Positions 35,157-44,256 of a DNA stretch of 64,000 bases are shown here, piece after piece. Under the pieces are notes generated by a model, which had not been told where the DNA came from, did no database searches, and saw nothing but the letters and a program-made list of their open reading frames with translations. Position numbers and translations under genes: made by a program. Source of the DNA: Somniosus microcephalus (taxonomy: Eukaryota); NCBI GenBank assembly GCA_052327205.1, contig CM126224.1, forward strand, positions 33,604,001 through 33,668,000, written 5' to 3'. The first letter of the stretch is position 1. The number at the start of each line of letters is the position of its first letter.

Positions 35157-35420
35157 TATTTTTTTCTCGTTTCCTCACATGGTAGCTGTTAATGTTGCTG
35201 CCATCATAATCCACACATCATCTAGAGCCATCTTTTATATCTTAACTTGTCCCATTACCTCTCCTTTTGCCTTGCACTATCATCCCTTTTGTCAATCGCT
35301 TCTGCCTTCCATCCTATCACACACCTTCCCTTTGTTCTTTCCTCCCCTCCTCCATGCCCCTGCTTAAAAATCTCTCCTCCCTAACCTTTTCCCGTTCTGA
35401 CGAAGGGTTCGACCTGAAAC

Positions 35421-37084: not shown

Positions 37085-38320
37085 GGTGTGCTGGGGCACC
37101 GTGGATACAAAATTGGCTAAGGGACAGAAAGCAGAGAGTAGTGGTGAATGTTTATACAGACTGGAGGGAACTGTACAGTGGTGTCCTCTAGGAGTCAGTA
37201 TTAGGACCACTGCTCTTTTTGATATATATTAATGACCTGGAGTTGGGTATACAGGGCATAATTTCAAAGTTTGCAGATGACACGAAACTTGGAAATGTAG
37301 TAAACAGTGAGGAGGATAATGAAAGAGGTCAGGAGGACCTAAGACAGACTGGTGAAATGGGCAGAAACATGACTGATGAAATTTACTGCAAAGAAGTGCG
37401 AAGTGATGCATTTCGGTAGGAAGAATGGTATCAGGGATGTGGGACTTCAGTTATGCAGAGACCAGAGAAGCTGGGATTGTTCTCCTTGGAGCAGAGAAGG
37501 TTAAGTGGAGATTTAATAGAGGTGTTCAAAATCATGAAGGGTTTTGATAGAGTAAAGAAGGAGAAACTGTTTCTAGTGATAAGAGGGTTGGTAACCAGAA
37601 AACACAGATTTAAGATAATTGGCAAAAGGACCAGAGGCGAGATGAGAGAATTTGTTGTACGTAGGGAGTTATGATCTGGAATGCATTGCCTGAAAGGGCG
37701 GTGGAAGCAGGTTCAGTAGTAACTTTCAAAAGGGAATTAAATAAATACAGTAAACTCTTTCGTATCTAGCACCGACGGGACCGGGATGGTGCCGGTTGAT
37801 TAAAATTCCGGATAATGGAGAGGTAGATCTAGCGAGGCTATTTTTAACAAACGGTGTTCGAAGAGACTTCCGACAGCGGCAAGATGCCGAGTAGTGGCGG
37901 TTTGGAGAACTACTCCCCACTGACTAACTCGGCCACTGCGGGAGACTCGGACTTGGCAACATTTCCAGTTATTGAGGTGTTCGGATCGGAAGAGACTTCT
38001 GACAGCGCCAAGAAGCCGAATAGTGGCAGTTTGGAGAACTACCCCCACTGACTAACTCGGCCATCGCGGGAGACTCGGACTCTGCAACATTTCTGGTTAT
38101 TGAAGTATTGTTTTCGGAGTATCAATTTTGCCGGTTATTAGAGAATTTCAGATAAGTAGGTGCTGTTTAAATGAGAGTTTACTGTAGTTGAAGGGGAACA
38201 ATTTGCAGGGCTCTGGGGAAAGAGCAGGGGGAGTGGGACGAATTGGATAGCTCTTTCAAAGAGCTCTTTCACAGGGATGATGGGCCGAACGGCCTCCTGT
38301 GCTGTATTATTCGATGATTT
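37085..38320 (+). mobile_element. CR1 RT/3' fragment with internal deletion and MITE insertion
   Basis: IYINDL...SKFADDTKLG, then LGLFSLEQRRL. Tail continues after 38186. Confidence 0.88.
37748..38184. mobile_element. pogo/Tigger-like MITE, related family with internal ~125 bp tandem duplication
   Basis: TA|cagtaaactct...gagagtttactg|TA. Shares gcaccgacgggacc with the other MITEs. The equivalent empty CR1 site ataaatacttgaagggg is visible at ~49152. Confidence 0.88.
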
Positions 38321-39760: not shown

Positions 39761-39986
39761 TGGAAAGAAACCACATTGGTCTTTGGAGAAATTCAATACC
39801 AAGATTATTAATAATGCTGTGGCATCAAGACTATTAGCCATAGCAGGTTGATACACATTTTCCTAAGAACAGCTCAAGCGTTATCCTTCTTTGTTGCCTC
39901 ATGTAAGCTGAAGTTATCAAATATTAAAAAGGCACGCAAATTGGAGTACCAGCCTTCGAAGATCAGCCATGATCTAATTGAATGGT

Positions 39987-40173
39987 CATGGTGTGGAGAT
40001 GCCGGTGTTGGACTGGGGTGGACAAATGTAAGAAGTCATACAACACCAGGTTATAGTCCAACAGCTTTATTTGAAATCACAAGCTTTCGGAGCGCTGCTC
40101 CTTCATCAGGTGAAGTCACTTGTGATTTCAAATAAAGCTGCTGGACTATAACCTGGTGTTGTATGACTTCTTA
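39987..40173 (-). mobile_element. Second Penelope-like family, inverted pLTR insertion
   Basis: 12-bp TSD taattgaatggt (39975-39986, 40174-40185). 55-bp inverted arms at 40029-40083 and 40119-40173 with one mismatch. Confidence 0.85.
40077..40113 (-). ncRNA. Minimal type I hammerhead ribozyme motif (Penelope-type)
   Basis: Minus strand reads UCAC-CUGAUGA-A-GGAGC-agc-GCUCC-GAAA-GCUU-GUGA: full core, 5-bp stem II, palindromic AAGCUU stem III, 4-bp stem I. Confidence 0.8.
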
Positions 40174-40894
40174 TAATTGAATGGTGGAGCAGACTCGAGG
40201 GGCCATATGGCCTACTCCTGCTCCTATTTCTTATGTTATGTTCTTTTGAAAAAGTTGTGTGCAGTTTTTGAACATTTTACTAAGCTTGGCATTCCAATTG
40301 ATGATACAGTAATACCCCAGTTGACAAATTGCTGTGATTATAGACACTTGGCACAAGCTGAGCTTTCACTAAACCTTAGCTGATGTTCTAAAATGCGATT
40401 TTTCTGAAATTTTTCGGCATCTCTGGAGCAATAATTGAATATTCACAGAAGCATAAAGCCATATTTAGTAGATCAAAAGCTTTTTGAATAGAGTTCTAAA
40501 TTCTGGTGTTCTATTATTCATTGCTGCTTTCCTGTTAGTTACAATTTTGCTAAACCTATTAAATTGTATTTATTTTATGTACAGTTTATTGAGTACCACT
40601 GTAGTGTGAAATTAGACCAAAACAGATCCAAATTCTACTGACCAGAGGGCTCAATGCCAATGAGCTTTGTTGGCAGTGAGTGCAGGGGTGAAACAGACAA
40701 GAAAGAGAAGGTAAAGTCATCATATTCCTGGTCGACTCATTGATTTTTACCAGCAAATACAGACAAGCCGACAGTAGATCCAAAATGCTGACTTGACTGT
40801 GTAAAATGCTGATGATTGGTATTTATGACAATATGCAGAGTTTGAATACGTCCAGCTACTCATTGTTAGTTTTAGGATTCAGACTTGTATGACA

Positions 40895-41185: not shown

Positions 41186-41866
41186 CTCAAAAATTGGAGG
41201 TATTTAATAAGCAAAATTTCTGCCCCCATCTAATGTTTATAGGATTTTATATCTAGTACTGGTACATTGGTACTATTTCTAAGTCATGTCCTCCTCCGCA
41301 GTACCACTGCTGCCCTTCTGCTTCTGCACAGACATCCTTCAGCTGGGATAGGATGATTTGAGCTACGCAAAGTTTCTCAGTCAACAGAAGGGGTATTTTT
41401 CAAGATGCGAGAGGTTCTCCCAGCTATGTTTTCTCTCAATTTCTCCCGAGATGGGGCAAGGGCCAACAGGGATCATCCCAACCAGTGACTTGAACCAAGA
41501 CCTAGTGAACATGCCGATTCATAAGGAAACCTGTATAAATGGACGTTCCCAAAAAACCTGCAAAAAAATGGACACTTAGAGACACCCAAATAACTTACAC
41601 GGCAAGATATACAAGAGGCACTCTGAAGCTACAGACACTTGCAAAGTACGAGCTACAGACAGCTGTCAATGCACCAAGGCCCAGTACAACTTAAAACACA
41701 GGACACAGGCCGTTGCAAAGCTGCTATATCTGGAACTTTCATCAAGTCGGGATCACTGGCGTTTCCCTTACAGCTCGCTTCCTTTCTGCCCCAAATTCCC
41801 GTGAGGTCAGTGCATGCTGGTTAGCGTGAGGCAGCAGTGAATTTTGTGAAAGAGCTTTTGTGGGAT

Positions 41867-41997
41867 GGGGAGTTCTTTACCCAGCATCCATTGCGGCAGA
41901 GAAACCGCACTCTCTCTGGGATTGAATGTTTGCATGGCTCTACTCACGGGATTCAGCGGTTTCTCTGCCATTACGGATGCTGGGTAATGAACTCCCC
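41867..41997. mobile_element. 131-bp hairpin MITE with ~42-bp TIRs
   Basis: AT|ggggagttctttacccagcatcc...ggcagagaaaccgc / gcggtttctctgcc...ggatgctgggtaatgaactcccc|AT. Confidence 0.75.
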
Positions 41998-44256
41998 ATT
42001 CTACTGACAATTTTACAGTGCATACAACGACCATTTTTAAAATAAAGGACGCCTGCAAAAAGAGGTCAACTGGTTTCACTGTATAGGGTACATACAGTTA
42101 CTAGTATATTGTGTAGCCACTGGTTTTTCCACCACCTTTAAATGCAGTTTAGATTGGCCCAAAGAAGCTCCATGATGTGTATCCTAGGGTGAGAAACATG
42201 TACTGATCTCTCAATACAACGTGTGTGTGACCGTATCAGGGACATTTACTGTGATTTCCGTTGATCAGTAATTCCTGTTAGAGTGTGCATCGGTTCAGTG
42301 AAAGTTCTTACACAGTAGTGTATTTTCCTCGATCATTGCGCAGCATCTAGCCCTCGACACCTAAATAAAAAATTAACAAAGACCCTTCAAGATGTCTCTG
42401 GAATATGGACATAATTCCTCACTTTGAAATCATAAAACAAAAAGACACAAATTTCATCGCAGTCTGCAAATAAAGAACACCGAAGGGGTGCAGTTCAATA
42501 AATGCTTAAAGGTGGTTTGTAAAATTTAAAAAAATCAAATTAAAAAAGTGAACTTCAAGCAAACCTTCACTGAGGAAAGTACTGAAACAAGAATGAATAG
42601 GAAGGTATACATTTACTATGATTATGCATCCGGATAGGGATGGAATGGAGCTGAACACCACATTAAGCAGAGTTTGCTGCGCTTATGTATTCATCGGAGC
42701 CTCTGATTGCCTTTAGATTAAGCTGTGTACCTGTACTTCTTTATAAAATTATTTCCATTGTTGGCTGTGATGCCCCTCACTGCTCAGCAGCAGATCTCCT
42801 GCAGAATAATGGAAGGTTCTTGGTGAAAATCACACACGTAATTGGTCAGTAATGAAAGAGAAGGCCTGCACTTTAGACTTTAACCATGTTAATGATTTAC
42901 CGCGTAGCAAAAGATCACTGGTGTGGCTCACCTCCTCCAAATAGACAGATCCTCGTGTTCATTGTCATCAATAATCATAAGTTGGATCTATAAATAGACC
43001 CGAAACCTGTTAAGATTAGTCACTCCGGAATGTTAACTTGGAGGTGTGCAGAGGTCGCATAACCTACATGTAACGTTCTCAGGAATATTCCAGGGTTATG
43101 CAATTTTGTGGACACCAGTTACAACCTCAGTATAGATATCACGACAATTGAAAACGTTTTACACACTCTCAGCTGCAGTGTACATTTAGGCTTTTCTATA
43201 ATCAAATTAAAGATTTTAAAAAAATCAATACTGTTGGAGAGGCAATGGATACCCAGAATCAGAGAGCAGCACCCACTGCAACCATCTACAGATACTTGCT
43301 TTTCTTCATTTACCAACTAAAGGTTTTAACCTAACAATGAGATTACTTTTACCCAATCTGTTCGATTTACTGGATAGTAGAGAATTAAAGGAAAATATTG
43401 AGCTTTGCTAATGATGCCATCTAGATTTTAAAAAGTGATATTTATTGAATGGCTGTGTCCTGTAATAAATCAGCTACACTATTCACTTCATCAAGGTTTT
43501 ATTTTTCTCTATTCGTGGCTTCAGTGGGAACCTTAGCCAGTCACCTATAGCACTGACTCAAAGTAATGATCGCGATGACAGTACTAAGTGAATTCTGTCA
43601 CTGTTTTTCCATTTACAGAATTTCTACGTATTTTGGGAAGACATTAGTCTTGAAAATCTTTTTGATGGAGTTAAACCAGAACGGATTCATTTCAAAATTT
43701 AAATTTAAAATTTTATCACTGTGCCTTTAAGATTATGGGAGAAACATCTCTTAAATCATTTGGATAATTGATCAGCCCTTTAGAGTAGAGTATATCTCCT
43801 TACTTTCAACGCAACCACATATTCAGAGGATAGAACATGTGAAAAACATGTGAAAGTATAGAATCCAAATATTAGGGAACTCCTCCTAAATTGTGTGCTC
43901 CAACCCACTTTTTAAAATTCAGTTCAATTAATAAGTGACCAGAGCCCTCAAAAGAGTTAAGTCGCTCAGCTATTGTACATATAGAAATGATAGACGATTG
44001 GACATAGCTGTACATAATTGGGTAGTAAATCGCTGTTTGTAGCAAATCTTGGGCTCTACGTACACAGCATACCAATGCTGAAAGGAGTGTTTAATATGAA
44101 TTTAAATTACATTTCCGTAAAACCCACAAAACTAATAGCAATAGATTTAAAATGTCATAACTAGTTATGTGGAATCTAGTGTTATGCATTTTCCTTCTAT
44201 ATGGTCATTTCCCCATGACTGGCCTGTTCTCACGATTGTGCTTTCTTTTTCCACAG

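Follow-up and report, generated by a model that had tools for sequence, protein, structure and literature searches.

Insertions of EN+ Penelope-like elements (PLEs) with inverted pLTRs are described, in the sections of the literature drawn on here, as 5'-truncated inverted copies with a target-site duplication (TSD) and a tail of ~30-40 bp that is found at one end only and extends as far as the point where the ORF begins (PMC3846280, PMC8557442, PMC2377424; for the one-sided tail, PMC8557442 and PMC11167929). The pLTR contains a hammerhead motif as well as a TATA box combined with an Inr-like TCACT (PMC3846280). This promoter type is not universal, since the internal promoter of D. virilis Penelope is described as TATA-less (PMC2377424). 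The hammerheads of metazoan PLEs are minimal type I motifs with an unpaired base between A9 and G10.1, a G10.1-C11.1 pair, a palindromic 15.2-16.2 segment and a 4-bp stem I; pairs of motifs located 100-700 bp from each other on opposite strands have also been noted (PMC4209133), and the hammerheads are reported to be weak even as dimers (PMC4209133; reviewed in PMC6765202). For PAc, a Poseidon element of Anolis, the protein, a predicted dimer, nicks and extends both target strands, two adjacent internal starts of reverse transcription (RT) define the tail, and the template is mainly unprocessed RNA (PMC11167929). Twin priming of L1 offers a parallel outside the PLEs: a second RT event on the other target end generates an inversion with an intact TSD, and the cap is the source ascribed to an extra G seen at full-length 5' junctions (PMC11702581). 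Finally, non-LTR retrozymes are non-coding, hammerhead-bearing tandem direct repeats derived from the PLE pLTR (bioRxiv 10.64898/2026.07.22.740005). How the inverted ends of Penelope insertions are formed and what the hammerhead contributes are treated as open questions in the parts of PMC8557442 and PMC11167929 consulted.

The insertion analyzed here lies in a 64,000-nt stretch of the Somniosus microcephalus genome, hereafter the window. It measures 187 bp (39987-40173) and is bordered on both sides by exact copies of TAATTGAATGGT. Its features are compiled in the table below; the sense strand of the element is the minus strand of the window, and positions are numbered from the predicted scissile bond, +1 being G 40080 and -1 being U17 40081.

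Table. Coordinates of the PLE insertion, its hammerhead and its target site (window positions).
Feature	Position	Strand	Remark
Host repeat, LINE 3' UTR tail, interrupted by the insert	39951..40240 (left edge approximate)	+	empty-site copies; L121
Left target-site duplication, 12 bp	39975..39986	+	
One-sided 42-nt Penelope 'tail'	39987..40028	-	sense +53..+94, up to ATG 39989-39987
Long arm, predicted 5' UTR copy	39987..40116	-	-36 (predicted start site) to +94; comparison with L121
Long-arm portion pairing with the short arm	40029..40083	+	54/55 matching
Minimal type I hammerhead	40077..40113	-	predicted scissile bond 40081/40080
Hammerhead stem I	40113-40110 / 40080-40077	-	
Hammerhead CUGAUGA	40109-40103	-	
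Hammerhead extra A	40102	-	
Hammerhead stem II	40101-40089	-	
Hammerhead GAAA	40088-40085	-	
Hammerhead G-C	40084-40083	-	
Hammerhead U16.1	40082	-	
Hammerhead U17	40081	-	
Junction 'CA' between the arms	40117..40118	+	
Short inverted arm	40119..40173	+	sense -3..+52, without catalytic core, without tail
Right target-site duplication, 12 bp	40174..40185	+	

The TSD is real because the empty-site sequence is found uninterrupted at other genomic loci, being unbroken in 42 alignments. In the long copy L121 a LINE RT frame has its stop immediately before this sequence, which also recurs in the window. Contigs from 4 sequencing runs at the locus contain both the family and the empty-site join. The long arm matches L121 at 98% over s93..-36, and the hairpin fold has z = -15.8, none of 200 shuffles being equally stable. 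The TSD-flanked 187-bp insert with 54/55 matching arms reported by the first-pass annotation thus holds in its coordinates, 12-bp TSD and empty sites. Like the EN+ PLE insertions described, the window copy combines a 5'-truncated inverted copy, a tail at one end only, a TSD and a hammerhead, and it differs from these descriptions in that both arms are predicted 5' UTR only, without ORF, and in that an extra cap-like base occurs at a predicted start site. Elsewhere in the window, a ~128-bp unit is present in two tandem copies that are 84-90% alike (37860-38118), and an inverted repeat (41860-42004), whose 49-nt arms are 86% complementary and separated by 47 nt, is unrelated to the Penelope stub and is perhaps the remnant of a small DNA transposon.

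A complete minimal Penelope-type hammerhead had been claimed for the minus strand of the insertion, and every core element was indeed found there. Its order is stem I UCAC, CUGAUGA, the extra A, stem II GGAGC/GCUCC, GAAA, GCUU and stem I GUGA, so that the required CUGANGA, GAAA and UH are present together with stems I and II. The palindromic 15.2-16.2 segment (AAGCUU), the 4-bp stem I, the G10.1-C11.1 pair and the unpaired A between 9 and 10.1 (40102), an extra base known for PLE hammerheads, are shared with the metazoan motifs, whereas stem II has 5 bp as opposed to 7-8 bp in Schistosoma and the cleavage site is embedded in a 55-bp stem (PMC4209133, as far as its account extends). Among 62 long first arms, the sole strongly dimorphic site is N7, the free position of the core (45 C, 17 T). 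An Rfam scan of the window, hammerhead included, gave no hits at the gathering score. Further hammerhead-like cores (CUGAYGA...GAAAC) with different flanks occur in the window at 35397 (+), 54895 (+) and 18440 (-), and these probably come from other Penelope-like families.

The ribozyme is only in part contained in the hairpin loop: C16.2, U16.1 and U17, together with the 3' strand of stem I, belong to the arm (40083-40077). In the full insert, the active fold, with stems I and II formed and an open core, is predicted to cost 12.6 kcal/mol (P ~1e-9), as against 2.0 kcal/mol (P 0.04) for an RNA starting at -36. The window copy has no TATA box and would therefore be transcribed by read-through only. 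The prediction for such a minus-strand RNA is that its cleavage site is sequestered in the 55-bp stem, the upstream arm pairing over it, and the hammerhead of this copy is therefore likely inactive. Co-folding of two ribozyme copies gave a minimum-energy structure without the stem III dimer, a weak test given the very short helix.

The insert is a stub of a very abundant Penelope-like retrotransposon encoding an RT domain and a putative GIY-YIG domain. A 35-nt piece of the tail has 4,845 exact matches in the genome and the core pattern has 10,329. The long copy L121:376-2520, 2.1 kb in length, carries an uninterrupted frame of 527 aa for RT and the putative endonuclease; its inverted arm measures 107 nt and its TSD ~12 bp. 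Its frame matches RVT_1 (E 2.2e-11), and its last 131 aa match GIY-YIG PF01541 at E 0.0012 and 19.5 bits, which is under the curated cutoff of 22.6, with the motif visible by eye. The frames of L121, L122 and L123 share a C-X4-C-X2-C linker; a zinc-finger-like CX2-5CxxC linker between RT and EN is described as a trait of the Neptune clade (PMC8557442), and the motif points to a Neptune rather than a Poseidon parent. The ATG at the end of the tail (39989-39987) opens a 30-codon frame in L076, after which L076 switches sequence. This ATG likely starts the ORF of the element, so the insert would consist of two 5' UTR copies. In PAc the ORF is described as starting at stem II, as opposed to 92 nt downstream of the cut for the likely ATG of the present element (PMC11167929). 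Both the architecture and the ribozyme class are already published, and the locus is one of thousands of stubs. Two other identities were considered and rejected. A MITE-like unit copied whole does not agree with an exact internal junction shared by 2 of 77 copies and with junctions that differ among the 30 best matches. A non-LTR retrozyme, which like the window copy is non-coding, hammerhead-bearing and derived from the PLE pLTR, requires tandem direct hammerhead units, whereas the window copy consists of one unit, arranged head to head, that has only one core and an internal junction that is not conserved (bioRxiv 10.64898/2026.07.22.740005).

We then compared arm ends across the family, tallying them by hand from the matches listed. 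The DNA-similarity search favors short junctions, and the copies that it returned (L001-L030) were therefore excluded from the end counts. A tail-anchored sample was taken instead from the first 100 matches listed, all on contig C1 and representing 99 loci; one member of each of four pairs with near-identical flanks (L045/L046, L113/L116, L114/L117 and L115/L118, segmental duplicates on C1) was dropped, leaving 95 copies for which 600-1,500 nt were fetched. An inverted segment is present in at least 51 of these 95, a lower bound because 14 copies are still within the element where the fetched DNA stops. TSDs of at least 8 bp flank 30 of 38 inserts examined. The 51 inverted segments start anywhere from +30 to -1868, with 19 at -24..-46, 4 at +4..-2 and none at -3. 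In 23 of the 51 the inverted arm outreaches the first arm on the upstream side by more than 10 nt; in 12 it extends less far, and in 16 the two ends lie within 10 nt of each other. Being so often the longer one, the inverted arm was not simply copied from the first arm as it stands. The distal end of the tail-less arm is nearly fixed, at ~+52..+62 where seen, and the tailed end lies at ~+93. Over 48 nt, the arms differ by 0.63 mismatches within one insert vs 2.24 between inserts (24 inserts), and both arms thus derive from the same template lineage.

Two genome-wide patterns sampled the ends close to the ribozyme. The short-junction pattern yielded 77 copies, with starts at +2 (1), +1 (13), -1 (5), -2 (7), -3 (14), -4 (3), -5 (2), -6 (14), -7 (1), -8 (12), -9 (2), -10 (2) and -11 (1); at the peaks at +1, -6 and -8 a microhomology of 3-4 nt is on offer. 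The second pattern, for arms ending at +4 to -8, had 425 matches, and of 100 listed, 4 insertions or ambiguous cases were set aside. The remaining 96 arms end at +4 (12), +3 (6), +2 (7), +1 (14), -1 (8), -2 (8), -3 (3), -4 (12), -5 (9), -6 (9), -7 (3) and -8 (5), a distribution for which uniformity is not rejected (p 0.12) and in which -3 is among the rarest ends. The first-pass annotation had asked whether inverted arms of other genomic copies start at the same nucleotide, and had named scattered starts as an outcome against its reading. Starts are scattered, and the exact junction occurs in 2 of the 77 short-junction copies. The only other such copy, L002 (C38:49185394-49185580), differs in its TSD and in several bases.

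A different position stands out upstream of the ribozyme. The long arm of the window copy has its end precisely at -36 (40116), with C as the next base, and across the genome a departure from the consensus after -36 is seen in 602 arms. Long copies have TATATAA from -66 and CCACTTC with its A at -36 (L121). The distance between this TATA box and an Inr A at -36 is what we take to be the usual TATA-to-Inr spacing. Among 100 of the -36 arms listed, the next base is C in 76, A in 17 and T in 7. At -35, where ends are also common (402 after a filter, mostly with microhomology), C follows 25 of 100 listed ends (Fisher p 5e-13 vs -36), and at -37 the C:T ratio is 44:36 after 20 substitutions had been removed by eye from 100 listed ends (Fisher p 1e-7). 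When 30 of the -36 arms were fetched, 4 of the 5 A cases turned out to be substitutions in long arms, and the sequence after the 23 C's varied; a CACC fold-back accounts for 4 of these 23. At 7 loci each of the two arms stops at -36 and shows an extra C/G, the ends being 1-4 nt apart (for example C1:216161974, L152/L153); one of the seven, C15:17962041, is also readable as a short duplication. A 3' splice site as the cause of the pile-up was rejected, as no AG precedes -36 and the following bases vary. We estimate ~460 arms ending at -36 with C, or 4.4% of core copies (denominator 10,329); the first 100 core copies listed contain 2, below this genome-wide estimate. From these sequence comparisons we infer that -36 is the start site of the element RNA. 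The excess of C after it suggests a copied cap, and the junction C at 40117 is likely a copy of the cap G.

A smaller excess is found at the predicted cut itself. Counted exactly under an identical filter, +1 has 65 matches, of which 2 are insertions, leaving 63, compared with 28 at -1. Ends at +1 thus make up 63 of 423 in +4..-8, 1.9-fold over other positions (p 6e-6), or 53 of 413 (1.6-fold, p 0.001) once 10 joins through CAC/TTCACC microhomology are left out; they represent <1% of arms. The base after them is T in 47 of 63, or in 37 of 53 without the microhomology joins, vs 18 of 72 at those other positions that allow a T (p 7e-7); part of these T's can be explained by microhomology of another kind. 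In two inserts, C3:267304418-267304467 and C22:64660197-64660247, both arms stop precisely at +1, T is the next base in each, and 4-5 nt separate them; these are better candidates for cleavage fossils than the window copy. The enrichment means that some templates may be cleaved RNA, and the family may carry a small cleavage footprint, at <1% of arms. The idea of a copied cleaved end survives in part at the family level, as a modest enrichment mostly with T, and is not supported for the window copy. Two opposite-strand pairs 500-650 bp apart, C12:192461722/192462371 and C26:22727018/22727530, show the same departure after +1, which suggests that the change was already in the template.

Based on the above data, we propose that the window copy arose from two cDNAs of uncleaved element RNA, each primed on a different target strand, that were then joined head to head, a reading to which we assign a probability of roughly 0.6 and for which we infer the start site, cap copying, two-strand priming and ribozyme inactivity. 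The element protein would cut both target strands, and the 5' end of the RNA would be copied twice. The first cDNA would begin at the distal internal start (+94, with the tail), read through the intact hammerhead and run off the capped 5' end at -36, adding a C opposite the cap. The second would begin at the proximal start (~+52, no tail) and stop at -3, one of many scattered stops. End joining with 0-2 extra bases would then complete the insertion. The nearly fixed distal end of the tail-less arm is what a second RT start predicts. Such a pathway resembles that of PAc, in which two internal RT starts produce the tail, both strands are extended and the template is uncleaved (PMC11167929, in the parts drawn on here). 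It is also related to L1 twin priming, although L1 is described as using poly(A) priming followed by scattered internal sites, and hence gives pieces without overlap, whereas fixed starts with overlap would give a hairpin in the present family (PMC11702581).

Other histories of the junction have to be weighed against this one. The first-pass annotation took the short arm as a copy of the 5' end of the self-cleaved RNA, at which the cDNA would have run off, and as starting essentially at the cleavage triplet. The arm does start within 3 nt of the predicted cut, and +1 is the most frequent end family-wide within +4..-8. Nevertheless, the arm begins at -3, three bases upstream of the scissile bond, whereas a cleavage product would begin with GUGA at +1. 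The CTT upstream of the cut would be present by chance in 1 case in 64, and the T seen after +1 ends is missing. Ends in the 96-arm sample are scattered, with 12 each at +4 and -4 vs 14 at +1 and only 3 at -3, none of the 51 unbiased inverted segments starts at -3, and the template of the partner arm was uncut at the site. For PAc, moreover, the part of the report consulted describes cleavage as unnecessary in vitro and no reads ending at the site (PMC11167929). With its 3 nt beyond the predicted cut, the short arm is likely not a trace of cutting, and its origin by run-off from a cleaved RNA is improbable. Self-priming, already proposed for PLEs in the portion of PMC3846280 consulted, would instead have a single cDNA reach the 5' end, fold back (e.g. 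through GTGA-AG-TCAC) and be copied, the middle of the palindrome being skipped or deleted across the folded core. The junction GTGAAGTCAC is a mini-hairpin, the join of TCAC to TTGTG is also seen in L002 and L163, and the arms within one insert are concordant; with a later central deletion, asymmetric arms could be produced as well. We consider this route unlikely, though less so than run-off: fold-back covers only the few C-ends noted above, the inverted arm frequently exceeds the first by far, the 7 loci show two independent arm ends at -36, and the distal end of the tail-less arm is fixed.

A third history was also raised in the first-pass annotation, namely that a full second ribozyme was lost from this copy by microhomology deletion. 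Here the second arm would also have come from the start site (ACTT, -36..-33), and a loss of 32 nt between CTT repeats would have removed the whole core. The junction does read C-ACTT-GTG, and 14 of the 77 short-junction copies start at -3. The corresponding 32-nt CTT-to-CTT pattern, however, has a single match genome-wide, which is not in a long arm and gives no support for a recurrent deletion; in addition, A precedes only some of the -3 starts, and a C-to-C join involving the cap base would suit 5 of the 14. This deletion is highly improbable, and joining of two cDNAs from uncleaved RNA remains our preferred reading of the window copy.

In the literature searched, with subscription papers and supplements outside its scope, we found neither a cap-base signature nor a +1 excess for Penelope elements. 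The locus itself carries little weight, and the family census is the useful result, with ~4% of arms at the predicted capped start followed by C and <1% at the predicted cut. Tentatively, and with more doubt than confidence, the stub junctions could be taken to record the ends of the RNA in vivo, mainly a capped end at the TATA/Inr start, 36 nt above the cut, and less often an end located precisely at the cut, with T as the next base. If true, the window copy would represent the cap end, and the C3:267304418 and C22:64660197 inserts would represent the cut end in both arms. The stubs would then provide genomic evidence that, in the germ line, the hammerhead cuts part of the template RNA and that uncut RNA is the source of most insertions.
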